From positions 1,430 through 65,429 of the IMG/VR virus record IMGVR_UViG_3300044820_000139: 64,000 bases of DNA; one strand, 5' to 3'. Positions 6,670 to 48,229 of this stretch are shown here, piece after piece. The notes below the pieces were generated by a model. The model was not told the DNA's origin, searched no databases, and saw only the letters and a program-made list of their open reading frames with translations. A program made the translations under genes and the position numbers. The stretch is from a virus. Its lineage: Duplodnaviria > Caudoviricetes. How positions within the stretch are numbered: the first letter of the stretch is position 1; every line of letters starts with the position of its first letter.

Positions 6670-6677
6670 TGATTGGC

Positions 6678-7016: not shown

Positions 7017-7018
7017 AA

Positions 7019-7306: not shown

Positions 7307-8144
7307 TGGTCAACCTCGCCCCATTACTACCTGTTGCTCCGCCGCCGCCCGAAGTTCCACTGCTGACTCCCACCGCGCCAACCGGACGTACATTATCATG
7401 CGCCAGCAGTCCTCCAAGCGTTGGGCTAACCACATAACCTTGCCCTTCAACGTGGCCGACGTACTGCGTTGTGTTTGGCGTCAAACCTACAATCGTTGCC
7501 GAGGGAAGAGTAGTTTGAACCGCCCCTTTTTGCGCGGTAAATGCAGTCAAAGGGCCAGAGGTTCCATGCACGCGCACTTGAGTCACTGCTCCAGTTTGCG
7601 ATGAGTCAACCACCCCATAATTCGTCTGATTGAACGCGCCGGCATCTGAGATTGCGGAACTTGAAACAAGTCCAGCGTTTGAAGGAGATTCACCTGCGGG
7701 CTTATAATCGCTCCAATTCACCTGATCGTGACTTGAGCGAATCCGAAAGTGATACTGCGATCCCGGATCGTTTACTACCACACTGGTAGCCATCGTCGCC
7801 GGCATCACCACTGGAGATGGGTTCCCGGTGAAACTCTTGAGTGGCGAGTAACTTACTTCATGCCAGATTGGCTTTCCTTGAGCGTCGGCCGGATTCGTAA
7901 TCTGGATGTTATGAGCACCATTGGCGCCTGACACCTTAAAGCCAACTCCTTTCGGAACTGTTCCCGATCCTGGCTTGATGCCGCCTTGCTGAATCAGGTT
8001 GCCACTGGGAAGAGCCGCCTTCACGTTCTGCACCACCGTACTCATCAACTGGCGAAAGTCCTCACGAGGACCACCAGGAAGGCTCTTTGCCACACTCTCA
8101 ATCTGCGCTTGCAGCGCCGGGCTTCCTTGATTTGGAGTCGTCAT
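7299..8144 (-). CDS. Putative tail-associated protein with FN3-like beta domain
   Basis: Start moved to ATG 8144 (ATGA overlap with the nozzle stop); YHFRIRSSHDQVNWSDY resembles an FN3 C-terminal strand. Confidence 0.55.
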   Translation of the reverse strand: MTTPNQGSPALQAQIESVAKSLPGGPREDFRQLMSTVVQNVKAALPSGNLIQQGGIKPGSGTVPKGVGFKVSGANGAHNIQITNPADAQGKPIWHEVSYSPLKSFTGNPSPVVMPATMATSVVVNDPGSQYHFRIRSSHDQVNWSDYKPAGESPSNAGLVSSSAISDAGAFNQTNYGVVDSSQTGAVTQVRVHGTSGPLTAFTAQKGAVQTTLPSATIVGLTPNTTQYVGHVEGQGYVVSPTLGGLLAHDNVRPVGAVGVSSGTSGGGGATGSNGARLTNV

Positions 8145-11100: not shown

Positions 11101-11695
11101 GGCCGTTGCCAGTTGAGGGAGTCGATGGGCAACAAACTTCCATTGCCAGGCAGACAGTGTTCGGCTTCCAGTGCCAACCCACCGGCTTCATACCGATAGG
11201 GTTGAGGGGTGGTTTTCCGGTGTTGTTCTGGATTTGCTTGGGATCAAAACACATGCCCGGGCCGGTAGGCACGTTCAGATCGCTGAAGGCCTGCCAAACC
11301 TTGTTCTCGGCATTGCAGCCGATCATGTGGGATTTAATAGGAGGAGTGACAAGAGGGGTGGGGGGAATCTTGACCATGCGTCCAGTGCCCACGGGGTATT
11401 CGCGCCACAGATTGCCTGAGGCGTCGAAGACGTAGGGCATGTCGAAGAAGGTCTCAGTGGCTAACTCGGGCTCGTACTCGAAGAAGCCCGCTCCGGTTAT
11501 CTGCGCCTGCACACTGGTCTGCATGGCCAGATTGATCCCGGCGCGCGTGCTGGCGCACGTCACGCCGGGAGATTCCCGGGTAAAGTCCGTGTTACGGCAC
11601 AGAGCGGCCAGGCCGATCGGCAAATTTGTCGGATCGTCCTGGTCTACCTGGCCGAGAAACCGGTTAAAGACTACCGGCTTTCCAAACCATTGCAT
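8141..11695 (-). CDS. Tail nozzle / stabilisation protein (P22 gp10 or T7 gp12-like role)
   Basis: 1184 aa beta-rich ORF downstream of the adaptor-like gene; C-terminal WQWES...F..R...G..W..KSM pattern typical of podovirus nozzles. Confidence 0.6.
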   Translation of the reverse strand: MQWFGKPVVFNRFLGQVDQDDPTNLPIGLAALCRNTDFTRESPGVTCASTRAGINLAMQTSVQAQITGAGFFEYEPELATETFFDMPYVFDASGNLWREYPVGTGRMVKIPPTPLVTPPIKSHMIGCNAENKVWQAFSDLNVPTGPGMCFDPKQIQNNTGKPPLNPIGMKPVGWHWKPNTVCLAMEVCCPSTPSTGNGHTYQAQNAGVTGPNQPTWPLTTSTPVNPVTVTEVLSAEQIAQGLVPVTWKENTMVMANRLPVPDAPVITVGTGGSFTGGQDVYIAVTFVNNQGETTPSVAAAAVNISAGASVSVAIPALNTLPNWIANLSASYVPTGMNVYVATVATGNGAPPFSDYEEFNGLFALGTNAVVTGLGTGSAPPNLTTARVVPGQLPTPDVQVQIQRIPASSTVTPPPAVGLTLVNGAGTIPNGSTLYVVLTLLNSAGETTAGGSSNITTTAANQGVQLDLAQASSYGPTVTGVNAYVAVFASGQSPSNPIIYHLYNTSGPYTPGTTPIIANNVLSGDTPPTNNTATLPVGGFPSGRDVYVLQTYTNDNGETKAGPTNSIINTNADDSILVTVAVPEDDNNNKLYTIKSVGIYEADVPTGTPAPQSTAFALVGYYQPGDSPFILNTATGQNPPTSNGTGPGGAIVADTETGGANGGQGYRYAVLLWMNTNETVSGFTIASSIQYDVDEDGWEIGIFNILSGPSNIVARLIAFTGADASQSGPYNWSGLIDLADLSQNVVWPTTTLIDDVNQSATAIFDNVTTQANFNFTDTWMDTENNVDDRTDILAPFQACRIDYLKTVNCLAYSGVLGYSGGGLVSIGGDPESVYADTGPVPFPSDGQRCFGFTDAYKSTIFALREKGGYVLTPNSGNPSSWQAVQRWSDVGPCGFRAWDANGKFIVFVHRSGLYKYDESDPDMMSKEIPRQWSTINWAAAHNICVTIDEDTHTVRIQVPTETSTVNNQEFVLSYLEGWSNPIHFSTFASKEISMDAARRWSFNDVAATLCLRMDRTLPAGPGFIDGPDWTTQQDSSFGVSQIIYADSSPDGALQARTPGIYSDNGAGIDWQWESVCAGQMQAVCKPEGVNLNALGIGRIYWSFLAARDQDADPGGPKENEIPIGDGYFDLASGQKVGITGKCGPEINEFFRVRFTNGKQPGCWASLKSMTVFLIPFTVGRGEWEG

Positions 11696-11710
11696 CGGTC
11701 GGCCCCGTGA

Positions 11711-12157
11711 TTACTGGTTGTGTGGAAGGGTAATCGCGATTTGGACTCCAGCGCCGGCGTTTGTGATCTGAGCCGATGTGGCTGCGTATCCAACGTTAGA
11801 GGCAAGTTCCACGCCCCCAGGTGCAAACATACGCAAATAAAATCCATTCACCGGCGCGATACCTTGGCCGACTCCTTCAATTGGCGCGGGCATCACCACA
11901 GGGCTTGGGTTAACATAGTACCCGCCGATGTTTTCCGCCTCAACTGTTGGGGCTTGCGTATACGCGGCTGGCAATTCCGGCGTTGGAATCTGGTTTGGGT
12001 TGGTGAATCCGAGCGGGTTGTTTCCGGCTGAGTATGGCGCCAGGTTGAGCGGGTCACCCACTCCGTTTACGCCGTAGTTTGCCGAAAACTTCGCCAGAAA
12101 TGTCAGTGTGTCCGGGTTTTCTGCCGGCGACACGTCGATGAGTTGCAATGAAATCAT
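11711..12157 (-). CDS. Hypothetical virion protein
   Basis: 148 aa ORF with a GAGAGAGG RBS, between adaptor and nozzle. Confidence 0.6.
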   Translation of the reverse strand: MISLQLIDVSPAENPDTLTFLAKFSANYGVNGVGDPLNLAPYSAGNNPLGFTNPNQIPTPELPAAYTQAPTVEAENIGGYYVNPSPVVMPAPIEGVGQGIAPVNGFYLRMFAPGGVELASNVGYAATSAQITNAGAGVQIAITLPHNQ

Positions 12158-12185
12158 TGTTTTGTCCTCTCTCGGTTGAAATCAG

Positions 12186-12929
12186 TTATTTCCAAAACCA
12201 CTGAGCTAGCCCGCTATCCCGGCACATTCGCTGGAATCGCGCTGGCTCAGCCTGCTTCTGGCGCATCAGTTCGGCAATGATGTTGTCTTCCGCGGCCTGG
12301 CCCTTCGTGGCATAACCTTCCAGAATTGCTGGGTTGCTGCGCTCCACCCCGGACGTCGCCGCGCTTTCATAACAGACCGGAACCCAAACGTCTTCGTGCG
12401 TGCATAACAGGTCATCGTCAGTTACCAGCATCTGCGGGTTGAATTTGCCGGTGACCTCAATGTCGATAGGCTCGTTCACAGGCGTGATTTCAAGTTTGTT
12501 GCCGATCATCGAATAGTAGAGCGGTCCACCCAATCCATTGGAGTTCATCAGGCTTGGGTTTGTGTGCGGCAAGGTGCCAATGTTTCTGATCTTGAAATAT
12601 CGCTGTACCGGAACACCGGCAGGCTTGACCCAAATCTCCATCACATCGAAAAGACCGGCGAGCAGCGCCGGAGGGTTCTGCTGAGCGACTGGCTGACCAG
12701 CGAAAGCGGTTGCATTCTGCCACTTGTAAAGGCTTGTGGTGCCGGCCGGAACGTTCAGGATCGGCACCACAGCAGTCAGATTCTTGGCACTGGCGTTCTT
12801 GATGTTCAGGTTCACTGCGGCATAGGTGATGTTGAGCAGCGGCAGAATATAGCCGCGCTTCACCCATTGGCCCTTTGGGTCTCCCAAAAGAGCCTGAATC
12901 ATTCCGATTGCGTCGCCAAGTCTCATCAT
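12186..12929 (-). CDS. Putative head-tail adaptor (tail tubular protein A-like)
   Basis: 247 aa; N-terminal helix, beta core, C-terminal helices; position after the capsid module. Confidence 0.55.
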   Translation of the reverse strand: MMRLGDAIGMIQALLGDPKGQWVKRGYILPLLNITYAAVNLNIKNASAKNLTAVVPILNVPAGTTSLYKWQNATAFAGQPVAQQNPPALLAGLFDVMEIWVKPAGVPVQRYFKIRNIGTLPHTNPSLMNSNGLGGPLYYSMIGNKLEITPVNEPIDIEVTGKFNPQMLVTDDDLLCTHEDVWVPVCYESAATSGVERSNPAILEGYATKGQAAEDNIIAELMRQKQAEPARFQRMCRDSGLAQWFWK

Positions 12930-12941
12930 TGCGTCTGTCCT

Positions 12942-14093
12942 TTATGCGCCGGCTGGTTGTGCCGCGGGCTTTTCTTTCTTCGTTTTTATGCCGCGGCCCT
13001 CGAGCTTTTCGCGCCGTGCGCGCCGCTCTTCCATTACCGCGAGCACCTCTTCCAGCTTTTCTTCAGGCAGAACTTCAAGGAAGGCCATCGGTACCACCTT
13101 GCCCGCCATAAAGGCATCGAAGGCGTCATACGGCGCGTTGCAGTTGCGGCAGAAGTAGGCATCCGGTGAAGGCTGCTGAGTTCCGCACTGCGGGCAGGGA
13201 GGCAGGGTTTTCATCTCCCCAGTCACGGCCAGTTTTGCAGTCGTCCACTCTTGAAGTTTTTCCTTCCAGCCCATCTTCACCGCGAAGCGGTCCCAGTCGC
13301 GATGGGTGTTGGTCACCATCTTACGGCTGACAATATCCTGCTCATTCCAGAGCGCGTCCGCCTGCTGAATAATCACGTCGCAGTAATTGCGCTGTGTCTC
13401 GAAAATCCGTGCAAGTTCATCCACGAGCAGTGTCTCGCGCAGACGGTAGCTGTAAACAGTTGAATCCGACAACAAAACACGTTCCGGAACCCAAATGCGT
13501 CCGCCGGTCTTGGCCAGGTTCGCCGCGCTCAGCGTGTGGGGATTCTGATCGAACATCAGAATGCCGCCCATCAGCTTGTTGTCGGGCGAGTTGTACTGGT
13601 TCCATAACTCACATGCAATCGAATGCGGCGAGAACATGCGTGCCTGACATACCGGCATATCGATCGGCAAAATGCTGTCGGTCTCATGCCCGGTCACCGT
13701 CGAGTAAAAAGTGGGTTCCTTATCCGGCTTTCCTTCGCCGACCATCGGGCTCGCGATGTACTGGTAATGACCTTCGATCATCCGGCCCATGAAGGGAACG
13801 TCGAGATGGTGGTGTTCGCTGGCGCCGGCCTTCTGTACGCGAAGGTTGAGCTGGCCTTCAATCACCAGGTCGACCGGGTTGTAATTGACGACGGTGCAGG
13901 GGCGAAGCGGCCCGGTAATCCTGCCGTCCGGCCCTTTCATGGTTTCGGTTTGCATCCGGCGAATCAGGTCGAAAAGTTCCTTTTGGCGCTTTGTGGCGGC
14001 GCGGCCTACCTTGCCGAGCTGCGTTGAACGTTCGGGCAAACCAAGCATTGCTTGCGGATCACTGATCTGCGTTACGGGCATTTCTTCTGGCAT
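12942..14093 (-). CDS. Hypothetical protein with C-terminal zinc ribbon
   Basis: CPQC-x10-CRNC near the C-terminus; AAGGAG RBS. Confidence 0.7.
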   Translation of the reverse strand: MPEEMPVTQISDPQAMLGLPERSTQLGKVGRAATKRQKELFDLIRRMQTETMKGPDGRITGPLRPCTVVNYNPVDLVIEGQLNLRVQKAGASEHHHLDVPFMGRMIEGHYQYIASPMVGEGKPDKEPTFYSTVTGHETDSILPIDMPVCQARMFSPHSIACELWNQYNSPDNKLMGGILMFDQNPHTLSAANLAKTGGRIWVPERVLLSDSTVYSYRLRETLLVDELARIFETQRNYCDVIIQQADALWNEQDIVSRKMVTNTHRDWDRFAVKMGWKEKLQEWTTAKLAVTGEMKTLPPCPQCGTQQPSPDAYFCRNCNAPYDAFDAFMAGKVVPMAFLEVLPEEKLEEVLAVMEERRARREKLEGRGIKTKKEKPAAQPAGA

Positions 14094-14114
14094 TTCCTTA
14101 TCTCCTAAAACAGG

Positions 14115-14819
14115 TTAGTTGCGGCTTTCGCCCCAATCCTCACTTGCGCCAAAGTGGCCGTTCAGGCCCGCTGCGGCGGCCATCCTGTCCCTCGCCTGCT
14201 GCGCCGCCAGGCTGGTCGACTTCCAAACCTGTTCGAGCGACTCCTCGGCCGCGTTGATCTCGCGCTCCAGAGTTTCCTGTGCGCGCTGGCGCTCGGCGAT
14301 CTCTGCCGCCATTTCTGCCCGGATGTAGGCCTCGATGTCGCGGGGGTTCTCGCGCTGCATCCGCATGTAATCGCGAATGGCTCCGCGCAAGTCGCCGGCG
14401 GCGTCCAGTGTCGCCCAGGGTCCGGCCACCATGAAGTAATCGCCAGAGGCGGGAAATTCCTGCACAAACAGCGGCGTATCGGGATCTTCTGCGCGGTGCG
14501 ACTTCCACTCCCACGCTCCGCCCCAGATCGAGGGACCAAACCAGCGTTGCAGAATCCAGGCCGATGGGTCCGTGCCCTGATACCGCGGCAGTTGATACCG
14601 GCCGCCCTGAATGCGGTCAATGGTTACTTTGCCGTCGCGGATGATGTCCTGCTCGACCCCGTGCGCAAAGTGGCGCATGGTTCCCTGGCAAAGAATCCGG
14701 CAGTCTCCGGCGCGCACCAGACGCCACATCGCGCGACCGTGCGGTGTCAAACCGCCATACTCGATCAGTAGCGTCCGTACAGCGCGCGGTGTCTTGCGTT
14801 CGATCTCATCAAGAACCAT
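14115..14819 (-). CDS. Hypothetical protein (coiled-coil C-terminus)
   Basis: 234 aa ORF right after the major capsid gene; GGAG RBS. Confidence 0.65.
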   Translation of the reverse strand: MVLDEIERKTPRAVRTLLIEYGGLTPHGRAMWRLVRAGDCRILCQGTMRHFAHGVEQDIIRDGKVTIDRIQGGRYQLPRYQGTDPSAWILQRWFGPSIWGGAWEWKSHRAEDPDTPLFVQEFPASGDYFMVAGPWATLDAAGDLRGAIRDYMRMQRENPRDIEAYIRAEMAAEIAERQRAQETLEREINAAEESLEQVWKSTSLAAQQARDRMAAAAGLNGHFGASEDWGESRN

Positions 14820-14901
14820 CAGACCTTCTCCGCTTAAAAGTTCGCCCGGCCCATCTCTGAGCCGGGCGGCCTGCTCCGTTTAGTCAGCGGCAGCTTAGAG
14901 A

Positions 14902-16191
14902 CTAAGTGCCAGCGGCCATGACCGGGTTGACATACAGGTTATAGGTGTACACGTGCGCCCAGGGCAGCTTCGTGTAAAGGTTGTAGGCGTCCTGGAAGAG
15001 TGCATCGCTCTCTGAGGTCGCCTGGCCGCCTACCGTGCGGAACCACCAAATGCCGTCCAGAGGACCGGGAATCATTCGCTGGCTGCCGGGGTAGCGCACC
15101 TTGCGCAACTGGCCTTCGGCGATGTCGTAGAGCTTGTCCACGCCCGCCATTGAGTCGGTCAGCACTTCCTGGTTGCCAATCACCCAGGGAGCGTTACGAG
15201 GAGCCGCAATGTCCGGCTGCTGAACCTTTGCGTCGGTGACCATGAAAGAGGTCTTAGCAAAGCCCAGCAAACGGGCAGTGGCGCGCTGTACGTAGTGTGT
15301 GTAGTAGAAGCGCTTCTCTTGCTCCTGATCGGAGCCGAGTGCCTGATTCTGGCGCTGGTTCATCACTTCGATGATGCCCAGGGTAAGAGTCGAGCTCGCA
15401 TTGACGCTCGGCGACTGCACGTAGGCGACGGTGCGCGCAATGCCGCAGTTATCGCCAACCTGTGAGTTGGAGATCAGATACTGCAAGCCCTGCGGGCCGA
15501 GTGGTGCCGCGGAGGCGTAGTTGAGCGGGATGAGCTGGCAACCGGCCGCAGTGCCAACCGGCACGTTGTCAAGGGTTATGGTGTCAATGCCGCCGCCGGT
15601 GGAGTTTGACTTCGCCAGGATGGTGACTGGGCCGAGGACGTTGAAGTTGGCGTCGGCCAGCTGATAGGCGTTGTTCAAATCCAGCAGCCGGTTGCCGTAA
15701 GGCACATTGGCCATCTGAACGACAACACCACCGGCATAGCTCGCGTCGATCACGCCCAACAAGCCCTGGTTGTAGCCCTGGGCCAGCGCGTTGCGGGTGT
15801 GCGCAAACTTGTCCTTCACCTTCGCCAGCATCCTGGCGATCGGCTTGGCGATCATCAGCCGGTCGGTTCCGGCGCCTTCAATGCGCTGCAGCAGTTCGGT
15901 GCGCGCGATGGCGATCAAACCGCTGACTGGCACCACGATAAACTGGTTGTATCCCGGCCCGTTGCCTGTGATGTAGGGGCCGCCGTCGGGATCGTTGCCG
16001 GCAAATTGTCCACCCACGTCAAATTCAATGGGGTGCCGGTACTTCTCTTTGCCCATATCCCTGGCCGTCGCCTTCTGGAAGCGGCGGTCAATTCCCTGGT
16101 CCAGGTTCTGGGCAGTCTCGATGTTCTCCTCGACCACCTGAAGCATGATCGCGATCTGAGCCTGCGCTGTGCTGTTATTCGGAGCTGACAT
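14902..16191 (-). CDS. Major capsid protein
   Basis: 429 aa, directly downstream of portal and scaffold; strong GC3 codon bias; GGGAG RBS; followed by a hairpin. Confidence 0.7.
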   Translation of the reverse strand: MSAPNNSTAQAQIAIMLQVVEENIETAQNLDQGIDRRFQKATARDMGKEKYRHPIEFDVGGQFAGNDPDGGPYITGNGPGYNQFIVVPVSGLIAIARTELLQRIEGAGTDRLMIAKPIARMLAKVKDKFAHTRNALAQGYNQGLLGVIDASYAGGVVVQMANVPYGNRLLDLNNAYQLADANFNVLGPVTILAKSNSTGGGIDTITLDNVPVGTAAGCQLIPLNYASAAPLGPQGLQYLISNSQVGDNCGIARTVAYVQSPSVNASSTLTLGIIEVMNQRQNQALGSDQEQEKRFYYTHYVQRATARLLGFAKTSFMVTDAKVQQPDIAAPRNAPWVIGNQEVLTDSMAGVDKLYDIAEGQLRKVRYPGSQRMIPGPLDGIWWFRTVGGQATSESDALFQDAYNLYTKLPWAHVYTYNLYVNPVMAAGT

Positions 16192-16297
16192 GTTATTGTT
16201 CTCCCAATCTGGCCCACTTTCACCAGTCGCTATTGGGCGCTTCCCGGCGTTGCGTCAACCACTTTAGTTCAAGCGGTAACGGTTGAATGCGAGCGGG

Positions 16298-17998
16298 CTA
16301 TGCTTTGCCCGCCCTCATCTTTTCTTTTTGTTCAACCAGCATTTCAAACTTCTCGGTCCGGCTTGCCGCCAGATACTCCGGATTCTTTTCGAGTGTCGCG
16401 AGTGCGGCGTTCTCAAGTGCTTCCCCAATCAAGACTGTCGGCGGTGAAGGTGCTCCGCCGCTCTGCGGTTCGACCCGCGCCACCTGAGCAATCTTCTGCT
16501 GTTGCTCAGTGCGCTTGCCGCTCATCTCGCGGATACCGTTCTGAATCCGCGTGACGTGAGCATTAAAAATGTCGGGCAAATACAACTCGCGCAGCCGGGC
16601 ATTCTCGGCGTTGCGCAGAGCTTCGGTCTGTGGTCCCGGCGGCAAAGCGGCAAGCTCTTGCTTCTTGCGCAGCACGCTGGGAATCGAGTCGCATTTGCGG
16701 TTAAACTCCTGCGCAATCAGTACGCCAAAAGCGCGCGCCTGGGTTACCTGACCGGTGACTGGGTTAGTGTACTTCTGCTCCAGAACCACGTCAGGGATGA
16801 CCTCGCCACGCTCGCGCATCGCCTTGAGGGTGTTGTCGATGTACTCGCCAACGCCATTGCCCCAGTTTGTGTTGATTCTGGCCTCAAAATCGGCGCGGGC
16901 TTGAACGCGGGCTGTTCGCGTGTTCGTCTGCTTATTCTTGTTTAGCTCGGCCTGCTGGGCTTTGAGTTGCTCCTGAAAGGCCTTCTGGGCCGGCGTGGCA
17001 TCGGGCGGAAGTTCCGGTAGAGTGTTTTCCGCATCCTCTTGGCCCAGCAGTTCAGCCACATATTCGAAGGCCTTGATTTTGTAATCGGTGTCTTCGAGCA
17101 GCGCCTGATCCGCGGCTTTGGCCTCTTCGCTGGGATAGACTCCGGTCTCAACCCGCGCTTTGAGTTCCGCCAGGGATTCTTTGGCATCCTGGGTGAAGCT
17201 GGTCAACGCGCCGTTGGTTAGTTTGCGGCTCAGAAAGTCGAAACTTTCCGTCATCACCGGCGTGCCGTCGGCGGCTTTTACCGGCTCGCCTTTCTCATCA
17301 ACCACGTTGAACAGACCAACAAAGTCGTTAAAAGCTGCCTCGGCCATCTCTGGAGATTCGGGAGCCAAAGCAAACTTGTGCTCCAAGGTCAAGATGCGAT
17401 TGGCATTGTCGACGGCGAATTTTGCCTCTTCAACCGTTGGGATAATCGAGAGAATTGGCTTAGCCGCCTCCGCCGCGCGCGCCGTGGCCATAATCTCGCC
17501 CCTGAGTGTGGGGTTGGCGTCGAGCGCTGCCTTGAAGGCCGGATCTTTGGCTGTCCAATCATCGAGCGCTTGCGGGGTTGCCGCAGCGGGCTCGGGTGGC
17601 TTCTCGCCCGGTTGCAGTTCTTCTGCTGGCTTTGGCTCCTCGGGTGGTTTGGTTGCCTCCACGGGTTGTGCGCCGGGCTCTTGACTCTCTGCCTCTTTGG
17701 CTGCGGCTTCGGCTGCTTTCGTGGCTTCGTCGGGGTGCTCTTGCTTCCACTTCTCGTTCGCTTCGATGAACTGCTCGACGCCCTCTTCAGTGTTCGGATA
17801 CTTCGAAGAGTCAGGCTGTTCGCTGGGCGCTGCAGGTGCCGGTGCGACCGGAGTTTCAGGTGTGGCCGGAGTTGGAGGCGCGGGCGCAACGGGCGTGACT
17901 GGTACGGAGGGTACAGCGGAAGCCGGTGCCGGGGTTACCGGAGCGGGCGCTGGCGCGGCAGGTGCGGGTGATGCTGGTACGGATGTTACAGGGTCCAT
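16298..17998 (-). CDS. Scaffolding protein
   Basis: Pro/Ala-rich N-terminus and acidic helical body; lies between portal and capsid genes. Confidence 0.6.
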   Translation of the reverse strand: MDPVTSVPASPAPAAPAPAPVTPAPASAVPSVPVTPVAPAPPTPATPETPVAPAPAAPSEQPDSSKYPNTEEGVEQFIEANEKWKQEHPDEATKAAEAAAKEAESQEPGAQPVEATKPPEEPKPAEELQPGEKPPEPAAATPQALDDWTAKDPAFKAALDANPTLRGEIMATARAAEAAKPILSIIPTVEEAKFAVDNANRILTLEHKFALAPESPEMAEAAFNDFVGLFNVVDEKGEPVKAADGTPVMTESFDFLSRKLTNGALTSFTQDAKESLAELKARVETGVYPSEEAKAADQALLEDTDYKIKAFEYVAELLGQEDAENTLPELPPDATPAQKAFQEQLKAQQAELNKNKQTNTRTARVQARADFEARINTNWGNGVGEYIDNTLKAMRERGEVIPDVVLEQKYTNPVTGQVTQARAFGVLIAQEFNRKCDSIPSVLRKKQELAALPPGPQTEALRNAENARLRELYLPDIFNAHVTRIQNGIREMSGKRTEQQQKIAQVARVEPQSGGAPSPPTVLIGEALENAALATLEKNPEYLAASRTEKFEMLVEQKEKMRAGKA

Positions 17999-18031
17999 GG
18001 TTTCCTCTCTTTGGCAATTCTGGCGGTGCGG

Positions 18032-20614
18032 TTACTTACCTGCTCCGGCCATGGCTTCCGTGGCCTTCAGGGTCGAGTCGATGATCTCCTTGGCTCCGGA
18101 GACTTGGGCATTGGCAGTTCCTTTGGTAAGCATCGGGTCCATCATGGCAATCTGGCTCAGCCGATCAGCCATTCCCAGGGCAAGCTTCTGCAATTCCTGC
18201 AGGGTTGCCTGTGTAGAGGGATCGGGACCTTTGCTGGGCGGCGCGCCGGCGGCGTTCACCTTTTGCTGGCGCTGGGCGCGCTCGGCCGCAACCTGGGCGT
18301 CCATATCCTCCAATGCGTCATAGTAAGCATTCAGCCGGTCCCAAGCCTCGGGATCTGTATTCCTGAGATCGCACTCGGTCAGTGCATAGCGGCTAACCTC
18401 CTTCTTGGCGATGGTGTAATCCTCGAAGTTCTTGTCGGGCATGACCGGAAGTCTCTTGGTCTGCGCGCCGGTCTGCGGATCGATTGCCACACCCCAGGGC
18501 TTCGAAAGCAGCGTCTGGATGTCGATCTGCGTCTTGGCAACCTGGGCCGCGTCAGGATTGACGGAACCGGGCAGCATGGCGGAAAGCACTGCATCGGCAT
18601 TTTCCGGCACCGCAAACCATGCCTGAGCCGCCGGATTGTTGCTGGTCAACTCCTTGAACATGGTGATGTAGCTCTGGCGGAGTTCGTCGGGAGACGTGGG
18701 CAGACCTTGATCTTCATCGCTGAAGACTTCAACCTCGCCATCCATCTGACTCCAGTCAACCTGCTGGTTGCGCCAGCCCGCGCCCTTTGCCTGCTCCGCG
18801 CTCCAAACCTTGTCCATGGCGCCAATCCGCATCAGTTCCTTGGTGCACTCAATCGCGTTGCGCGCGGCTTGAGCGCATTCGTCCTTCACGTTCTCCCAGT
18901 AGGGCTGCATCCCGGCTGTGGCCTGGCCGAGCATTTGAGCTTGGCCCATGCCTGTTTCCACACCTTCCTGTGTTCCGCCGCCGAACGACTGAGGCGGCAG
19001 CCCGGCGATCAGCTCGCAGAATGTCATCAGCATCTGCGGATAATTCCATGCGGCTGGGTCCATGGGTAGGTTGTAGTGCATGAAGACTTCTGATAGTGGT
19101 CGAGGCTCGCCGTTGATCCGCATCGGAATCGCGAAGATGTGCCCCGGTATCAAGGACCGCTGGTCTGCCTTGTCTGGATCCAACCGGGCACCGTCCGCCA
19201 CATTCAGACCGGTTGAGGCGCGCTGCATCCAGTCGTCCAGCATCTGCATGGCGGCATTGAAGCGCTGATTAAACGGCACTACGCGCTCGCCGATCGACGG
19301 GCAGTAGGGCCCATAGCTCTCGTACAAACGGCAGCTTGACCACTCGCGACGCATCACCGCCGGGCGGATGTCCACCACCACGCCGCCAATCATCGAAACC
19401 TTGCAGCCCTCAGGAAAGGTTGCTTCCATGCGCTTGGCAAAGTCTTCGTGATTCAGTTCCCAATAGGCTGTTGGGTTGAGCCAGTTCTCGCTGTACGTCG
19501 GCCGGCTCTGATTGAGGTCGCTGGCGTAGCCTGAGGTCACTGACTTCAACTGAGTCCTCATCAGCTTTTCCCAGTCGGCGTTCGGCGTTGTCTCGGCGGT
19601 TGCGCCGGCGGAGATCTTCTGACGGAAAGTTGGGAAGAGTTTCAGTGCCTCGCCAAAAGCGATTTCGCGGTCATAGCTGAGCGTGGGTGATTGCCACCAC
19701 TCTTTCACGCTGGGACAAACGTCGATCTCAAGCGGAGAGTGGACGGTCTGTTTCACGCTCGCCCGCGGCACCTTCTTTGTGCCCGCGATCTGCAAACTTG
19801 TCCGGTTACCCTCGCCGGAAGCGTAATAGCTCTCTGGGCCCATGGATGTTCCGCAACCTGGGCAGGGAATCATTCCCTGGCCCTGGTCTTGAATCTTGTC
19901 CATGGGCGTTTCCAGGCCGCAGTTCATACACTTCATTCGCGCCGGCGCCTGAATCTCCATATCGGCGAAGATGTTTTCGTCGTCGTATCCGTTTTCAATG
20001 CCGTCCAGCACGCCGCGGGTGTAGCGGAAGTAGCAGCCGAAGGTATACAGGCACTCGTAGATGGTGCGCAGCATCTTGCGCACCTGGTTCTTGCGATCAA
20101 GAATGGAAATCAGATCCTGCGCGGCTTTGGCGGTCTGGCTGTCCTTGGGCTTTTCGGCATTGGCGGGCCGAACCACACTCTTTGGAATCGCGCGGGTCAA
20201 GTTCCCGACGAATATCTGCTTGAACATGAGAGTGATATTGTTCATCCACTTCTCAAGTTCAACGCTTTCCCCATCCTCAACCAAGCCGTTGTTGCGGATC
20301 TCGGCGAGCGCGTCAAACCAGCAGTTTCCAGTCTGGTCCCATCCCACCCACTGAATGCCCTTCTCCATCATCACGGTGAGCATCCAGACGCGGATTCTCT
20401 CCATGCGGTCCTGCATCCAGCCCGAGCGGAGATAACTGATTGTCGCGACGAGCTCGTTCTTGTCCTCTTCGGTCACGCCAAAGGTTGAGAAATAGTCTAC
20501 CTGGCCGCCGGCAGTCGTCGGCATCTTGAGTGCCGGGTTCTGCATTCCGGGCGCAGCTGTGGCGCTCACTGGATCAGCCGCTCTGCCTATCGGATTGATG
20601 GTGAATGCCGCCAT
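18032..20614 (-). CDS. Portal protein (with zinc-ribbon insertion)
   Basis: 860 aa first gene of the head module; helical C-terminal barrel-like region; CMNC...CPGC insertion. Confidence 0.75.
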   Translation of the reverse strand: MAAFTINPIGRAADPVSATAAPGMQNPALKMPTTAGGQVDYFSTFGVTEEDKNELVATISYLRSGWMQDRMERIRVWMLTVMMEKGIQWVGWDQTGNCWFDALAEIRNNGLVEDGESVELEKWMNNITLMFKQIFVGNLTRAIPKSVVRPANAEKPKDSQTAKAAQDLISILDRKNQVRKMLRTIYECLYTFGCYFRYTRGVLDGIENGYDDENIFADMEIQAPARMKCMNCGLETPMDKIQDQGQGMIPCPGCGTSMGPESYYASGEGNRTSLQIAGTKKVPRASVKQTVHSPLEIDVCPSVKEWWQSPTLSYDREIAFGEALKLFPTFRQKISAGATAETTPNADWEKLMRTQLKSVTSGYASDLNQSRPTYSENWLNPTAYWELNHEDFAKRMEATFPEGCKVSMIGGVVVDIRPAVMRREWSSCRLYESYGPYCPSIGERVVPFNQRFNAAMQMLDDWMQRASTGLNVADGARLDPDKADQRSLIPGHIFAIPMRINGEPRPLSEVFMHYNLPMDPAAWNYPQMLMTFCELIAGLPPQSFGGGTQEGVETGMGQAQMLGQATAGMQPYWENVKDECAQAARNAIECTKELMRIGAMDKVWSAEQAKGAGWRNQQVDWSQMDGEVEVFSDEDQGLPTSPDELRQSYITMFKELTSNNPAAQAWFAVPENADAVLSAMLPGSVNPDAAQVAKTQIDIQTLLSKPWGVAIDPQTGAQTKRLPVMPDKNFEDYTIAKKEVSRYALTECDLRNTDPEAWDRLNAYYDALEDMDAQVAAERAQRQQKVNAAGAPPSKGPDPSTQATLQELQKLALGMADRLSQIAMMDPMLTKGTANAQVSGAKEIIDSTLKATEAMAGAGK

Positions 20615-39115: not shown

Positions 39116-39356
39116 CTTTCAACCCCTCAGCCTCAATTGTGGCTTTCATTTCGTCGAATTGCTGTTTGTTAAAGAGAATCAAGCAGGCTTTCAACTCGCC
39201 AAACATAAGAGCAGCTAACACGTTTCCTGCTATTCCCATAGTGATCTGGCTGCCAGCCTTAACCGCTTTCATGTTGAGAACTTCGGCACCCATGCGAATA
39301 TCCTTGTTCTCATCTGACATTCGTTTCAGAACATCAAAATTGTTTACTTCAGGCAT
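39105..39356 (-). CDS. Hypothetical protein
   Basis: 83 aa ORF overlapping both neighbours. Confidence 0.65.
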   Translation of the reverse strand: MPEVNNFDVLKRMSDENKDIRMGAEVLNMKAVKAGSQITMGIAGNVLAALMFGELKACLILFNKQQFDEMKATIEAEGLKDGN

Positions 39357-40512
39357 CTCTCAATCCCTCCAGCCAGTAGGCCCACTCCTGCAGCATCTGC
39401 TTGCGTTCGTCGCCGTATTGGTAACGGTTATAAATCCCGCGCACTCCAGGCTGTGTGTGATTCAAAGCTTTTTCGATCCATTCCGGGTTGTACTTCATCT
39501 CCGTCAGGTGTGTGCTGGCCGTCCGGCGCAGATCGTGCGGCGTAAAATGCGGCATCCCCCACTTAATGCGGTTCATCGCCTTGTTGAGCGTCGCCGGTCC
39601 CATGGGTTCGGTCAGCGAGTCGCGCATCGGCAGCACTACATCAGCATTGCCGGCCAGACCTTTCAGGTGCAAAAAGAGTTGGTGAGCGCGCTGGCTTAGA
39701 TAGACGATGTGCGGCTTGCCGGTCTTCGAGAGCTCCGCTGGTACTTCCCATAGGCCCACGTTCAGGTCAACGTGTTCCCAGCGCGCGCACCGCAGTTCGC
39801 TCTTGCGGCAGAGAGTCAGCAGCATCAACTCGAGAACGGTCCCGATTCTTCCCAGGCGTACATCCAGCACCTTTTGCAGGAAGATTTTCAACTCAGCCGC
39901 GCTCAGATAGCGCTCCCGGCTGTGGTGGCGCGTCACAAAGCGCAGCGGCGTCCGGTCGACGGGATTGGCCTCAGAGACGCCGCAGACGCGCCCATAATCG
40001 AACAGCCGCTTGAGCAGGTGCCGAATCGCAGCGGCGGCCTCTGGGCTTCCCTCGTCGCGGCGGGCGAAGATCAGCCGCTGCACCTCTTCGCCGGTCACAC
40101 GGTTCATTGGCCGGGCACCCAGCGCTGGATAGACGTCGCGCTTGAGGTAGCGCTCAACAGTCTTCGGCTCCTTGCGGGCTGGCGTTACCACCTCGGCCAT
40201 CCAACGGGCGCCGAACTCTTGCACTGTCACCCGGTCGCCGGCACGCAGCCGCTCGCGTCGTTGATGCTCTGCTGCGCTCTCGCCCCGCGCCACAATCTCA
40301 GCCATCAAGTCCCGCCGCTTGCGCGCAGCGTCGAGCGACATCCGCGGCCATTGCCCGAGAGTAAGGCTCTCGCGCTTGCCGGCCAGAATGTAGCGATAGA
40401 CCCAGGACTTGCGGCCAGAAGGCTGCACAACCAGCTCAAGTCCCGCGCCCGCGCCGGCGGAGTAGCGCACAGTGCGCGGTGCCAGCTTGCGGATTTGAGT
40501 GGTGGTCAGCAT
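39349..40512 (-). CDS. int: Tyrosine recombinase/integrase (P4-like, N-terminal arm-binding domain)
   Basis: GLELVVQPSGRKSWVYRY arm domain; CRKSE (R), KTG (K), HDLRRT, LNH, YNRY (Tyr). Confidence 0.9.
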   Translation of the reverse strand: MLTTTQIRKLAPRTVRYSAGAGAGLELVVQPSGRKSWVYRYILAGKRESLTLGQWPRMSLDAARKRRDLMAEIVARGESAAEHQRRERLRAGDRVTVQEFGARWMAEVVTPARKEPKTVERYLKRDVYPALGARPMNRVTGEEVQRLIFARRDEGSPEAAAAIRHLLKRLFDYGRVCGVSEANPVDRTPLRFVTRHHSRERYLSAAELKIFLQKVLDVRLGRIGTVLELMLLTLCRKSELRCARWEHVDLNVGLWEVPAELSKTGKPHIVYLSQRAHQLFLHLKGLAGNADVVLPMRDSLTEPMGPATLNKAMNRIKWGMPHFTPHDLRRTASTHLTEMKYNPEWIEKALNHTQPGVRGIYNRYQYGDERKQMLQEWAYWLEGLRDA

Positions 40513-40514
40513 TA

Positions 40515-41126
40515 TTAATCAGGTAGTGCTTCAATAGCTGCCAGCAAATCGCTCCACGACGCTCCCGCTGCCAGCAAATCGCTCCACGACGCGCCCGCTG
40601 CCCGCAAATCGCTCCACGACGCGCCCGCTGCCAGCAAATCGCTCCACGGCGCGCCCGCTGCCCGCAAATAGCTCCACGACGCGCCCGCTGCCCGCAAATC
40701 GCTCCACGACGCGCCCGCTGCCAGCAAATAGCTCAACGACGCGCCCGCTGCCCGCAAATCGCTCCACGGCGCGCCCGCTGCCAGCAAATCGCTCCACGAC
40801 GCGCCCGCTGCCAGCAAATCGCTCCACGGCGCGCCCGCTGCCAGCAAATCGCTCCACGACGCGCCCGCTGCCCGCAAATAGCTCCACGACGCGCCCGCTG
40901 CCAGCAAATAGCTCAACGACGCGCCCGCTGCCCGCAAATCGCTCAACGGCGCGCCCGCTGCCCGCAAATCGCTCCACGACGCGCCCGCTGCCCGCAAATC
41001 GCTCCACGACACGCCCGCTGCCAGCAAATCGCTCCACGACGCGCCCGCTGCCAGCTTGGTTTCTATTTCGTTGATCCTGGTCTTGAAAACTTTAAACTCT
41101 TCCAAAAGTTCCTTCTTACTCTTCAT
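40515..41126 (-). CDS. Decapeptide-repeat protein, 17 x AAGA(S/P)(W/L)S(D/Y)L(L/R)
   Basis: 25-aa head + 17 repeats + 8-aa tail; 30-nt tandem DNA repeat; GAAGGAG RBS. Confidence 0.75.
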   Translation of the reverse strand: MKSKKELLEEFKVFKTRINEIETKLAAGASWSDLLAAGVSWSDLRAAGASWSDLRAAGAPLSDLRAAGASLSYLLAAGASWSYLRAAGASWSDLLAAGAPWSDLLAAGASWSDLLAAGAPWSDLRAAGASLSYLLAAGASWSDLRAAGASWSYLRAAGAPWSDLLAAGASWSDLRAAGASWSDLLAAGASWSDLLAAIEALPD

Positions 41127-44109: not shown

Positions 44110-44315
44110 CCATGAAATGCAAAGCCTATCAACTGCGCTACGACTCATCCTGTCCGCAATGTGGGGCGCGCGCCGGCGCAGCTTGCCGGAACAAGGAAGG
44201 CCAGAAGCTCCCCGGCACCCACTTTCAGCGCAATTCGAACCGCCGCCGGGCCGTGGCAGCAGCGATTGCTCTTTACGCCCCTTTACAACTTCAGATCAAA
44301 GAGAGTTTCCAATGA
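44106..44315 (+). CDS. Small zinc-finger protein
   Basis: CPQCGARAGAAC...HFQR; ATGA-coupled on both sides. Confidence 0.65.
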   Translation: MTMKCKAYQLRYDSSCPQCGARAGAACRNKEGQKLPGTHFQRNSNRRRAVAAAIALYAPLQLQIKESFQ

Positions 44316-44893
44316 CACAGCCAACATCCAAGCCATTCGCTTATGTATATACAGGGCCGGGTGGAATTGATCCGCAGACGCCTGAAGAGGCTGAGGCAGG
44401 ATGCGCCGCGCAGGAAGCGGCCGCGCATCCTAACTTTGCTGAAACTGAAACTTTTCTGCTGGTCGAAGCAATTCATCTCGCCGCGCGCGCCCACCGTGGC
44501 CAGGTCGACAAAGCCGGCGAACCTTACCTTTTTCATTGCCTGCGCGTCGGTATGAGCCTTTTGCCGGATGTGAATGCTGCGCTGGTTGGCATTCTGCATG
44601 ATGTTCTGGAAGACTCACCAGACAGAAGTGAGGCGGAACTTTCGAGAATCCTCGGCCACGGTCGGTCATGGGCCGCGCTGAAACTACTGACGCGCCTTGG
44701 TTGGCTACATTATGATGCCTACATCAACTGTATTGCTGCGAGTCCGCTGGCACGCAAAGTGAAGATCGCCGACCTGCGAGACAATTTGGATCTGCGACGG
44801 TTTACAAAGGCGATCATGAACGGCGTTCCAGTCGAGGAGATGTCGGCTCTGCGGTTGCGCTACATACGAGCCTTGGCTGTGCTGATGAAGTGA
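44312..44893 (+). CDS. HD-domain small alarmone hydrolase (SpoT/Mesh1-like)
   Basis: AARAHRGQVDKAGEPYLFHCLRV, GILHDVLED, KVKIADLRDN motifs; start at ATG 44312. Confidence 0.85.
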   Translation: MTQPTSKPFAYVYTGPGGIDPQTPEEAEAGCAAQEAAAHPNFAETETFLLVEAIHLAARAHRGQVDKAGEPYLFHCLRVGMSLLPDVNAALVGILHDVLEDSPDRSEAELSRILGHGRSWAALKLLTRLGWLHYDAYINCIAASPLARKVKIADLRDNLDLRRFTKAIMNGVPVEEMSALRLRYIRALAVLMK

Positions 44894-44903
44894 AAGAATG
44901 TTC

Positions 44904-44933
44904 TTGACAAACTGCGGACACATTTTGTATCGT
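44904..44933 (+). promoter_or_regulatory. Sigma70-type promoter upstream of the groESL block
   Basis: TTGACA (44904-44909), 18 nt, TATCGT (44928-44933). Confidence 0.55.
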
Positions 44934-45143
44934 CTCGCTTGTACTTGTTTTCACGCTGCTGCTGCTTCCCGTGTTCGCAAGACATCGCTGAATCGGGAGG
45001 AAAGGCTTTTATGCTTTCCGCTTTTTCCCCGGACCTCGACGCTATACGTCCTTACGGTCTATCTTCCAACGACATCCGCTACATTGGCATTGACCGCTCG
45101 CCGGCCACGCCTTTCCGCATCTTTATTCCTGAAAGGATTCTGC

Positions 45144-45518
45144 ATGAAAATCAAACTGTTTTCTACCTTGGCGCCTCTGTGCGCCCTGATGCTCGCAACT
45201 TCTACAGCCGCACCACAAACAGCACATCCCGTCGTAACCGGCCGCGATAAGCAGGCTGTTCCCGACTTGGTTACAGTGGCAGGTGCGCCTGTTCGTGAAG
45301 CGCTGCCCCAGCCAACCGAGGTTCAACGGCTCAAACTCGAAAACCTTCAGCTCAAGGCGACTTTGCTTTCACAGCAACAGCAGGCCTTGCAGCAGGAATA
45401 TGGCGCGCTGATTCAGACGATTATTGCCGAGCATCCCGGCTATATCTGGAATCCGCAGACCGCCGCGCTTCAGCCCGCCCCGAAACCAGTGCCTCAACCC
45501 AAACCCGCCGTAAAGTAA
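45144..45518 (+). CDS. Secreted coiled-coil protein
   Basis: ATG 45144 behind AAAGGA; signal-like MKIKLFSTLAPLCALMLATSTAA; Gln/Leu coiled coil. Confidence 0.6.
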   Translation: MKIKLFSTLAPLCALMLATSTAAPQTAHPVVTGRDKQAVPDLVTVAGAPVREALPQPTEVQRLKLENLQLKATLLSQQQQALQQEYGALIQTIIAEHPGYIWNPQTAALQPAPKPVPQPKPAVK

Positions 45519-45521
45519 CAA

Positions 45522-46109
45522 ATGCTTCGAAGGAGATTTCTCTTGGCTGAAAAAGACTTTGCGAAGTGCCCTCATTGCAACGTTCGTTACGATCCCTCAA
45601 GACCTGAGTGTGATAATCATCTGCGCTCTTGTGTCTTCTATCATCCAGGCAACGCTGAAATTCCAACGTGCCCTGAATGTGGCGTTTATTTTGATCCTTT
45701 GCGGAGTACGGCAGGCAATCACCTGCGCACTTGTCTTCATTTTCCAGGTAACGAAAGTCTGGTATCTAAGTCAGGCCCGCTTGGCGATCATATCCTTGTT
45801 CGTCCCTTTGATGCGGTCAAGACTGCCGGCGGCATGATTATCGCCGACACACAGGCGGAACGTCCCGGCGAGGGTGTTGTATTGGCGATTGGGCCGGGCC
45901 GCGTCACCGACAATGGCATTCTCATCCCTCCCGATGTCCGCCCCGGCGATCACGTTCTTTTTCCCACTTATGCCGGCCAGGACAAGAAAATCATTCTCTC
46001 TGTCGATGGCCAGCCCGAAGAATCTCTTCTGCTGATGCGACAGGATGAATTGATCTACAACCGCGGTCCTTACCAGCCCACAGAAAGGTCAAGCGATACC
46101 AATGAGTAA
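45522..46109 (+). CDS. groES: Co-chaperonin GroES fused to two N-terminal C2HC zinc fingers
   Basis: PLGDHILVRP, mobile loop KTAGGMII, GEGVVLAIGPG, VRPGDHVLFPTYAG; N-terminal C-x2-C-x13-H-x3-C twice. Confidence 0.9.
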   Translation: MLRRRFLLAEKDFAKCPHCNVRYDPSRPECDNHLRSCVFYHPGNAEIPTCPECGVYFDPLRSTAGNHLRTCLHFPGNESLVSKSGPLGDHILVRPFDAVKTAGGMIIADTQAERPGEGVVLAIGPGRVTDNGILIPPDVRPGDHVLFPTYAGQDKKIILSVDGQPEESLLLMRQDELIYNRGPYQPTERSSDTNE

Positions 46110-47928
46110 AGCCCTGCTCTTTGCCGGCCAGGTGCGTCCTGGCGGTCAGCTCCACCCTGAACTGCTCGAAGGCGTCACCCAGTTGGCTCTTGCTGTCGGG
46201 TCCACTCTTGGGCCACGCGGGCGGAACGTCATTATCGACCGCGCCGGCGACACGCCTCTGGTCACCAAAGACGGCGTGACGGTCGCGCGCAATATTCAAC
46301 TGACCAACCCTATCCACCATGCCGCCGTTAAGATGGTTCAGGCGGTTGCCCGGGCGACGGTCGAAGAAGCGGGAGACGGAACCACCACCGCCACCGTGTT
46401 GGCTCACAACCTCTTCAAGAGTGGTTTGGAGCTCGTTTCGGGGACAGCCTATACCATGCCCGGGCCAGCTTGGTTGGGAGATCGCTTTCCGTGGATCGCT
46501 CGTATACCTGGCGTCCGCAAGCCTGTCTCAATCTCGCCTGTCCTTCTGCAGCGTTCCATTGCTCTTGCAGTTGAAGCGGTGGCTACATGGATCAAGCAGG
46601 TAGCCGTGGCGCCCACCGAGGAACAGATTGCCCAGGTGGCCACCATCTCAACAAACGGCAATACCGCGATTGGCGAGTTGCTCTTGAAGGCGGTGCGCGA
46701 GGTTGGCCGGGACGGTCTGATCACCCTTGAAGACTCGAATAGTCAACAGACCTTCCTTGAATTGCGCACGGGATTTCAGTTCGACTCGGGATTCACCAGC
46801 CCTGATTTCATCACCGAGCGCAACCGAGGTGTGGCCATTCTTGAGAATCCGTACATCTTTATCACCGAGCGCGTGCTGACTCAAGGCATGGGAACTCTGC
46901 CGACCTTGCATGATCTTGGGCCTTTGCTCACTTTCTGCGCCGGCTTGAGCAGCGACGGAAAAACCCAGATCCGCGAGCCGCGGCCGTTGCTCGTTGTGGC
47001 CGACGACATCCAGGGCGATGCGGCGGTTACGCTTTCCGTCAACCATCTCAACAAAACGATTCAGGTTTGTGCGGTGCGCGCGCCGGCTTATGGCGAGTTG
47101 CGCCGAGCCATGCTGGCCGACCTGGCGCTCGTTACTGGAGGGGTAGTGCTCAAGAGTGACGGCGGCGAGGTAGTCTCCCGCTGGGTCTCTGAGGGTAAAG
47201 GCTTGCAAACCGGATCGCGGCTCGGCCAGGCTACTCGCGCGGTGGTTTCCAACAGCCGAACGATTATCGAGGGCGGAATCAACGACCCGGAAGATCCAGA
47301 GCTAGTCTCCCGCTTTGCCGCCTCACTGGTTGAACAGGCTCAGGCGATTCAGGATCCGTTGGCACGTGAGCAGATGCTGCAGAGAGCTGGCCGGCTGACT
47401 GGATCGGTTGCGGTGATTCATGTTGGCGCCGCCACTGAAGCTGAGGCGCGGGCCCTACGCGACGCCGTGGAAGATGCGGTGCTGGCAGTGCGCGCCGCGG
47501 TTGCCGAAGGAATTGTGCCGGGGGGTGGTCTGTGTCTCTTTGCCGCGGCGCAGCTGCTCGAGAACTCCGCCGAGGATATGCCGGCATATCTCGCCCTGGG
47601 CGCCAACCTGGTTGCGCAGACGCTGCGCGCGCCCCTACGGCTCATCGCTACCAACGCCGGGCAGAATCCCGATGAGATTGTGCAGCAGGTTTTCAGGCTG
47701 GCACAGTTGCATAAAGGGAAGCTAAGCCACGGCTACAACGCCGCCACCGGAAAGTTTGAGGATATGGTTGCCGCCGGTATCGTTGACCCCGCCAAGGTGG
47801 TGCGCGTGGCCCTGCAGAAGGCAGCATCGATCGCTGCGCTGATGCTCACCAGTTCCTGCCTGGTCTACTTCGATCCTGATGCGGCACGACTGCCGGCTTC
47901 GCCTGTTCAAGGACAGGTCAACCGGTGA
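46102..47928 (+). CDS. groEL: Chaperonin GroEL (divergent)
   Basis: [37 protein letters not shown]...[21 protein letters not shown] motifs. Confidence 0.95.
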
Positions 47929-47944
47929 TTTTGGAGATGTTCGC

Positions 47945-48229
47945 ATGATCCGAGCTTTGCGTACCACGGTTACACCAATGCGGCCTCCCCGGCTGACCGG
48001 AACCCTCTTTCGCATTTTGGATGAGGGTTTCGGATTCATTCATTCCGACTGTGGCGGCCGAGATCACTTCGTCTCCATCACAGAGATGCGCAACCGTGCC
48101 GACTGGCAGGCCGCCAGAGCCGCTATCGCCGACCAGGGAGGGATGAGGGTTAGTTTCTTCTCTGGCGCGCCCAAGGCAAAGAATCAGGCCCCGCGAGCGC
48201 TGGATGTGGCGCCGCTTTCCATGGCCTAA
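47945..48229 (+). CDS. Cold-shock-domain protein
   Basis: GFGFI (RNP1), DHFVSITEM (RNP2-like), APRALDV; GGAG RBS. Confidence 0.75.
   Translation: MIRALRTTVTPMRPPRLTGTLFRILDEGFGFIHSDCGGRDHFVSITEMRNRADWQAARAAIADQGGMRVSFFSGAPKAKNQAPRALDVAPLSMA

Follow-up and report, generated by a model that had tools for sequence, protein, structure and literature searches.

Introduction

GroES is usually viewed as a minimal single-domain lid, and few natural elaborations of it are recognized: the tandem Cpn20, the nickel tail of HspA and the altered loops of T4 gp31. In GroES structures, in functional tandem-fused GroES and in Cpn20, the N-termini are located on the outside of the dome. The Cpn20 proteins of chloroplasts and apicoplasts carry a second Cpn10 domain fused to the N-terminal strand of the first, indicating that this position tolerates fusions. 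T4 gp31 and RB49 CocO are phage-encoded lids for group I chaperonins, and gp31 lacks the roof hairpin of cellular GroES. The HspA protein of Helicobacter pylori is a GroES with a metal-binding Cys/His appendage outside the barrel (PMC5116745, PMC8779794). In addition, GroES-GroEL operons have been documented on viral contigs in virioplankton (Marine et al. 2017, PMC5649160), in a paper whose main text contains none of the words “fusion”, “N-terminal” or “extension”.

Here, we describe a phage GroES gene that differs from all of these. Like bacterial GroES (PF00166; E. coli 1AON, Thermus 4V4O), its product has a full Cpn10 barrel with mobile loop and roof hairpin (residues 84-183), and its gene lies directly upstream of GroEL, the same order as in bacteria. 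Unlike bacterial GroES, the protein is phage-encoded and twice the size, with an N-terminal extension of approximately 82 residues containing two C2HC repeats and a conserved C-terminal tail of 17-23 residues. It shares with Cpn20 (Cpn20/Cpn23 of 7ekq was matched) a fusion to the N-terminal strand of the Cpn10 domain, the added domain being a putative zinc finger rather than a second Cpn10. The appendage of HspA is C-terminal, His-rich and nickel-binding and has no finger motif, whereas that of the phage protein is N-terminal and made of regularly spaced C2HC units. The earlier note on this DNA knew of no zinc-finger GroES fusion, and our full-text literature search likewise found no paper on one. 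The zinc-finger-GroES protein belongs to a known kind of protein; its domain architecture is new.

The source phage

The DNA analyzed here, referred to as the window, is a stretch of 64,000 nucleotides (positions 1,430 to 65,429) that makes up most of the 65,429-bp IMG/VR record IMGVR_UViG_3300044820_000139, which has direct terminal repeats and a completeness rating of 100%. A tyrosine integrase is encoded at 39349-40512, indicating that the phage is temperate. Beside it, an ORF on the minus strand (40515-41126) matches the Pfam “Decapeptide repeat region” (E 7e-37) and contains a DUF4096 transposase-like segment. Most large ORFs of the phage match no PHROG or Pfam family: 10 large ORFs of the presumed structural arm (3629-20614 and others, minus strand) gave no PHROG match at 1e-5, and seven large ORFs, three of them from the same set, gave no Pfam match at 1e-3. 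By these comparisons the phage appears very distant from described phages. The major capsid protein is a likely client of the chaperonin, and PHROG recognized it in none of these 10 structural-arm ORFs. The stretch is present nearly word for word in two peat metagenome runs, possibly the source sample itself, and small word shares were also seen in other peat, permafrost and lake runs, on which no conclusion here is based. The features of the GroES gene and its neighbors are collected in Table 1.

Table 1. The zinc-finger-GroES gene, its parts and its neighbors (positions in the window)
Feature	Position	Strand	Remarks
Small upstream neighbor protein	45144..45518	+	Ends 3 nt 5' of the GroES ATG; conserved
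Zinc-finger-GroES fusion, whole gene	45522..46109	+	195 aa, 21.6 kDa from ATG 45522; one open frame
AAGGAG Shine-Dalgarno (SD) sequence (45530-45535), 7-nt spacer and in-frame TTG 45543	45530..45545	+	Probable true start; 188 aa, both fingers kept
Finger 1 unit, residues 14-47; ligand motif 45567-45632	45561..45662	+	34-codon block missing from 6/6 related loci; GC3 0.41
Finger 2 unit; ligand motif 45669-45734	45663..45743	+	Common to all relatives; putative ligands C50, C53, H67, C71
Linker of ~11 residues (PGNESLVSKSG), finger 2 to first GroES strand	45744..45776	+	Low pLDDT
GroES/Cpn10 beta-barrel core; mobile loop ~45813-45875 (KTAGGMII...), roof hairpin present	45777..46037	+	
C-terminal tail RQDE-x3-N-x-GP (usually YN-x-GP...), signature of the phage GroES subfamily	46038..46106	+	
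Phage GroEL, 608 aa	46102..47928	+	Start overlaps the GroES stop by 8 nt

A complete GroES core

The earlier note had read a complete GroES behind the extension and had proposed profile and structure searches of both domains; for the GroES domain, these searches agree with its reading. Residues 86-157 match Pfam Cpn10 (PF00166) with an E-value of 1.9e-18 and 66.7 bits, against a cut-off of 21.1, and the protein matches PHROG 3188 (co-chaperonin GroES; E 1.1e-13). The alignment of residues 84-195 with solved GroES chains covers nearly the full length (positions 4-89 of 94). In these alignments the mobile loop KTAGGMIIADT pairs with KTASGIVIPDT and KTKGGIVLPDT, and GPGRVTDNGILIPPDV pairs with the roof hairpin. 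In a full-length AlphaFold2 model built from 95 sequences, block-mean pLDDT was 78-97 over most of the length of the core, and the best Foldseek matches of the core were GroES chains from E. coli, Thermus and human complexes (5opx_O, 4v4o_O and 1aon_O; E 8.5e-9 to 1.9e-7, TM by target 0.72-0.85). The comparison with T4 gp31 made in the earlier note holds only in that both are phage-encoded lids. Structurally the likeness is loose: gp31 (1g31) matched the core at E 5.5e-3 and 13% identity, far more weakly than cellular GroES (E ~1e-8). We rejected a gp31-type identity, which entails a deleted roof hairpin and an enlarged mobile loop, given the hairpin present here and this distant match.

Compared with its relatives, the core has a pN/pS of 0.02-0.15 and is thus strongly constrained; it is a complete GroES under strong purifying selection. 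The product of the downstream gene is recognized as GroEL by Cpn60 (PF00118, E 8.2e-59) and PHROG 5725 (E 6e-116). It is highly probable that the gene is a real finger-GroES fusion whose product works as the predicted lid of the adjacent GroEL.

Two zinc-finger-like repeats in the extension

A regular-expression search of the translation found the motif C-x2-C-x13-H-x3-C twice only, at residues 16-37 (nt 45567-45632) and 50-71 (nt 45669-45734), which are the two repeats that the earlier note had placed at 45567-45734. A looser pattern, with 10-15 residues between the second Cys and the His, has three matches in the six frames of the window compared to 0.42 expected from codon shuffles, the third being unrelated and off-frame. 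The full spacing, C-x2-C-x3-[YF]-x9-H-x3-C with Y23 and F57 four residues past the second Cys, fits a putative classical beta-beta-alpha finger of the C2H2/C2HC type whose loop is longer by one residue and whose last ligand is Cys. The C, C and H positions are invariant in five aligned repeat sequences, and C, P, C, V, D, R, NHLR and PGN are invariant over all repeat copies. Finger 1 has an extra Cys (C30), and in finger 2 H73 is a possible alternative fourth ligand.

Searches for known finger families placed the repeats only broadly. When the PDB was searched with a repeat profile, designed C2H2 fingers were retrieved (Aart, 2.9e-6; a consensus finger, 7e-5), with scores summed over repeated CPECG-type matches. 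No Pfam finger family reached its cut-off, the nearest being zf-C2H2_3 (ESCO; 18.0 bits, cut-off 27), IBR_1 (16.5, cut-off 27) and UBZ_FAAP20 (12.1, cut-off 25). AlphaFold2 modeled a single repeat with a pLDDT of 67.5, a beta-bridge between residues 4 and 11 and a helix at 17-25 carrying the His; in the full-length model the N-terminal part has a pLDDT of 44-56, and neither model of the finger is a confident one. All eight Foldseek matches of the one-repeat model are beta-beta-alpha zinc fingers, including NDP52, FAAP20 UBZ, U-shaped CCHC, TAX1BP1 UBZ and CTCF, with the protein-binding types (NDP52, FAAP20 UBZ and U-shaped CCHC) leading; all are weak (E 6-9) and thus place the finger at the level of fold class only. 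VIA-align returned no match for a 35-residue finger model, which is too small to be informative, and the ESM Atlas look-alikes of residues 1-83 (feature scores 0.84-0.87), which are TRAF, XAF1 and UBZ fingers at a structural TM of about 0.4, are leads only.

The repeats share with UBZ4 of FAAP20 and RAD18, the CCHC fingers of FOG and U-shaped, and TRAF-type fingers the order and spacing of ligands, the aromatic residue and the predicted hairpin and helix. They differ in the x13 spacing, with its extra loop residue, and in matching no family model at threshold. The likeness again extends to fold class only. The UBZ, FOG and TRAF fingers belong to eukaryotes, and no ubiquitin partner would be expected for a virus of prokaryotes. 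A different arrangement, in which the two CxxC knuckles (C16, C19 and C50, C53) together form a rubredoxin-like Cys4 site, was rejected because six related loci have a single CxxC. Alignments of the finger region with rubredoxin are weak (E 0.5-0.9). The unit is kept in these one-finger relatives, and it is thus independent of the knuckle pair.

The Cys content of the extension raises the question of whether it is a metal or redox device, either storing or buffering metal as the C-terminal tail of HspA does or acting as an oxidation-sensitive switch that alters the behavior of the lid. All seven Cys of the protein are in the extension, including the extra C30 of finger 1, and none are in the core, and HspA provides a precedent for a metal-binding GroES (PMC5116745, PMC8779794). 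However, the putative ligands are set in regular, repeated finger motifs unlike a His/Cys-rich tail, little metal could be stored at one or two sites per chain, and one natural one-finger variant, in which the last Cys is replaced by Ser, is left with C, C and H (plus H39). We consider a metal or redox function very unlikely. HspA-type metal binding was itself rejected as an identity, as the C-terminal tail of the phage protein has neither Cys nor His.

Classical C2H2 fingers include many that bind DNA, and both the motif and the best PDB profile matches are of this type. The fingers could therefore bind phage or host DNA or RNA, with 7-14 weak sites per lid tethering the chaperonin by avidity, for example to a site of replication, packaging or translation. 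From ATG 45522, the leader MLRRRF contributes three Arg and residues 1-83 have a pI of 8.2. Against this, the fingers alone are close to neutral in charge (pI 6.0 and 7.0, with four and two Lys plus Arg), unlike DNA-binding fingers. The basic leader is lost when translation begins at the SD-supported TTG, which lowers the pI to 6.5, and the top structural look-alikes, weak as these matches are, are protein-binding CCHC and UBZ fingers. Nucleic acid binding is, in our view, quite unlikely, and the pI of the fingers mildly favors protein docking over it.

The composition of the extension also differs from that of its surroundings. GC3 is 0.36-0.41 in the leader and fingers (45522-45770), compared to 0.59 in the GroES core and 0.68 in GroEL (45771-47925 for the two together). 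Approximately 70 finger codons thus look compositionally foreign, which suggests that the finger module was acquired from elsewhere.

One polypeptide

Whether the GroES is in fact made with its extension depends on where translation starts. The only in-frame canonical start codons of the ORF are ATG 45522, which lies 3 nt past the upstream stop and has no SD; TTG 45543, which has a perfect AAGGAG with a 7-nt spacer; TTG 45699, inside finger 2 and without SD; and ATG 45834 (M105), inside the mobile loop. The stretch from the fingers to the first GroES strand has no in-frame ATG, GTG or TTG, so a complete finger-less GroES cannot start at any of these codons. TTG 45543 is probably the real start; it drops a seven-residue leader and retains both fingers. 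The earlier note counted approximately 75 extra residues before the GroES and called for a search for an internal start. Its count corresponds to the TTG start, the extension being 82-83 residues from ATG 45522, and the search turned up no codon among ATG, GTG and TTG that would give a finger-less protein. The ATG, SD and TTG are all kept in L004, L062 and L063, and L064, which begins inside this stretch, keeps AAGGAG and TTG.

The remaining ways in which the fusion could be an artefact are that GroES is actually made without fingers or that the two-finger form is mis-assembled. Gene callers prefer the longest ORF, and a CTG preceded by AGG (CTG 45759, L80) lies immediately upstream of the core. 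Set against these points are the lack of any ATG, GTG or TTG separating the fingers from the core, the perfect SD and TTG 45543 upstream of both fingers, and the region being open and conserved in six related loci. The two repeats are approximately 44% identical, which is beyond what an assembler would collapse or expand. The two-finger sequence is also unchanged in Logan contigs of two peat runs, possibly the source sample, which cover the region with zero differences. The earlier note had further allowed that homologues might prove to be two separate genes joined by a sequencing error. Each of the six related loci encodes the fusion and none encodes it as two genes, which excludes a sequencing join. 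An artefact is extremely improbable, and the fusion, as read from its start signals and its conservation, is predicted to be translated as a single polypeptide. A 226-nt contig from an RNA library (run X23; 10 differences) spans the GroES stop and GroEL start of a relative; it may be DNA carry-over and is not evidence of expression.

Variation in finger number

The related loci with the fusion (L004, L005, L062, L063, L064 and L065) come from metagenomes or metagenome-assembled genomes (MAGs) of different samples, and all six have one finger, in proteins of 161 aa. At the DNA level, the window differs from these relatives by a clean in-frame block of 102 nt (34 codons) that is finger 1, which marks the finger as a self-contained unit; the single finger of the relatives corresponds to finger 2. 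At approximately 44% mutual identity, its fingers are too different for the two-finger form to have arisen by recent tandem duplication or faulty assembly. In the sequence shared by the two contigs L004 and L005, the fourth ligand is changed from Cys to Ser by a single TGT-to-TCT substitution; this variant retains C, C and H plus H39, a possible substitute ligand two residues on, and the Cys is kept in all others. The variable copy number, together with this substitution, suggests that the fingers may be dispensable. In peat run X2, one contig ends at 45572 with the first CxxC knuckle running straight into finger-2 sequence, like a one-finger allele, a weak hint that one- and two-finger alleles coexist in that sample.

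A phmmer search of 1.84 billion representative sequences retrieved 8307 GroES-like proteins, and among the best 150 of these the motif is found only in a one-finger relative. In a survey of 54 phage GroES genes from IMG/VR, no gene had the two CxxC motifs of a tandem Cys/His extension, and the single CxxC of one of them (L044) looks like a mis-extended start. In a word-based homologue search, the whole protein retrieved only the one-finger relative and the finger region alone retrieved nothing. IMG/VR yielded no close relative of the phage GroES; its GroEL matches L002 and L003 were rejected as relatives because they belong to unrelated AT-rich large phages without an adjacent GroES. One relative (L065, CAYWMR010000394.1) is a 4.8-kb contig with the one-finger cassette that was binned in the MAG of an uncultured Terracidiphilus (Acidobacteriota). 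This binning and the peat origin provide a lead to the host, with the caveat that the bin assignment of so short a phage-like contig carries little weight. Searched against 201 genomes from the family of this MAG, the finger region gave marginal matches only (E 0.002-0.008), which we rejected as zinc ribbons, metal-ATPase motifs or off-frame hits, and no copy of the finger was detected there.

Variation of this kind might be expected of a tolerated passenger, a recently captured small domain that is neutral for GroES. Selection on the leader and finger is relaxed relative to the core (pN/pS 0.22-0.75, from few sites), a whole finger is present or absent, a ligand position has changed from Cys to Ser, the composition looks foreign, and the loose end at 45572 hints at both alleles in one sample. 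However, pN/pS is below 1 in all comparisons that have synonymous differences. All copies retain the reading frame, the ligand residues and the NHLR core, among relatives whose GroES cores differ at 13-20% of synonymous sites. Useless coding sequence is quickly shed by phage genomes, and other members of the subfamily decorate the same N-terminal position. We regard the passenger explanation as unlikely. The finger module is best described as a lineage-specific add-on of variable copy number. The earlier note had counted 14 fingers on the dome: two per chain is correct for the window phage, but the relatives have one, and the total of 14 assumes a heptamer.

A variable N-terminus in a phage GroES subfamily

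Among the matches listed, the closest GroES proteins are P0002, P0004, P0007, P0009, P0026, P0080 and L008, at 37-60% identity, and all seven share with the window protein the tail RQDE-x3-N-x-GP. Their N-termini are of several kinds. P0002, P0080 and L008 have no extension; P0007 has a 50-residue segment of no recognized kind; and P0004, P0009 and P0026 have a hydrophobic helix, with KD(19) of 2.05-2.55, followed by a cluster of Arg. Helix-bearing GroES genes lie at L006:579-992 and L007:459-905, on contigs with the shared cassette described below, and their starts are reasonably supported, in L007 by GAGG before a GTG and in L006 by an ATGA overlap. The helix and Arg cluster look like a membrane anchor, which would leave the barrel in the cytoplasm; we know of no description of a membrane-anchored GroES. 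By sequence comparison, the N-terminus appears to be a swappable position in this subfamily.

Where contigs allow, the GroES lies in a five-gene cassette (window 44117-48229; L008:3488-7404; L065:348-4311) that encodes, in order, an HD-domain hydrolase (PHROG 990), a small Gln-rich coiled-coil-like protein, GroES, GroEL and a small conserved protein. The second gene precedes GroES in L006, L007, L008 and L065 as well; in the window its product begins like a signal peptide, has a Gln-rich, coiled-coil-like middle followed by ...HPG[YFW].., and is Pro-rich at its end. The fifth protein has no Pfam match; the likeness of its GxGFI motif to cold-shock domains was judged by eye alone.

Approximately 27 residues, rich in Trp and Pro, are inserted in the phage GroEL (46453-46533, residues ~118-144), at what we take to be the ring-ring contact of E. 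coli GroEL at Ala108-Gly110. This insertion is shared by the finger-bearing clade (window, L065 and L004) and missing from the fingerless L008 and L007. Between the window and L004, flanks that are approximately 95% identical enclose a sharply different middle. A predicted complex of the finger region and two Zn with the phage GroEL scored 0.00, giving no answer and evidence neither way.

Proposed role of the fingers

We propose that the phage GroES would cap the GroEL encoded directly downstream of it and carry, as an N-terminal accessory module, two putative beta-beta-alpha C2HC fingers in this phage and one in its close relatives. A linker of approximately 11 residues would join this module to the N-terminal GroES strand. 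Each finger presumably binds one Zn, and the protein presumably assembles as the usual heptamer. Given that GroES N-termini are on the outer face of the dome, seven fingers in the relatives or 14 in the window phage would point away from the folding chamber. Facing outward, they could form a module for protein docking or targeting through which the phage chaperonin is tethered to a partner or a particular site. The earlier note had suggested that the fingers could recruit a specific client, nucleic acid or partner, or sense redox state. The combined reading, a working lid that bears such a module, has in our judgment a somewhat better than even chance of being correct. That the fingers serve in docking or targeting, considered separately, is a serious possibility that falls somewhat short of even. 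Docking by the fingers would parallel the transmembrane helix that appears to occupy the same position in distant members of the subfamily; the parallel is positional only.

A more speculative extension is that the GroES N-terminus is an exchangeable address tag, consisting of fingers, a transmembrane anchor or nothing, that sites GroEL/GroES in a group of temperate phages that are probably acidobacterial. We hold this tentatively and think it rather doubtful. If it were true, it would constitute a spatially targeted group I chaperonin, which is not known to have been described for GroES in any system.

Genes such as this one are annotated merely as “chaperonin GroES”, which makes the extra domain invisible in databases. 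Phage lids decorated outside the dome, by fingers and by apparent membrane anchors, suggest that viruses, beyond providing the chaperonin, may direct it to a place or a client. If it is so directed, the long-standing question of where phage chaperonins obtain their client specificity could be tested with purified components, for which the natural one- and two-finger alleles provide a ready experimental pair.
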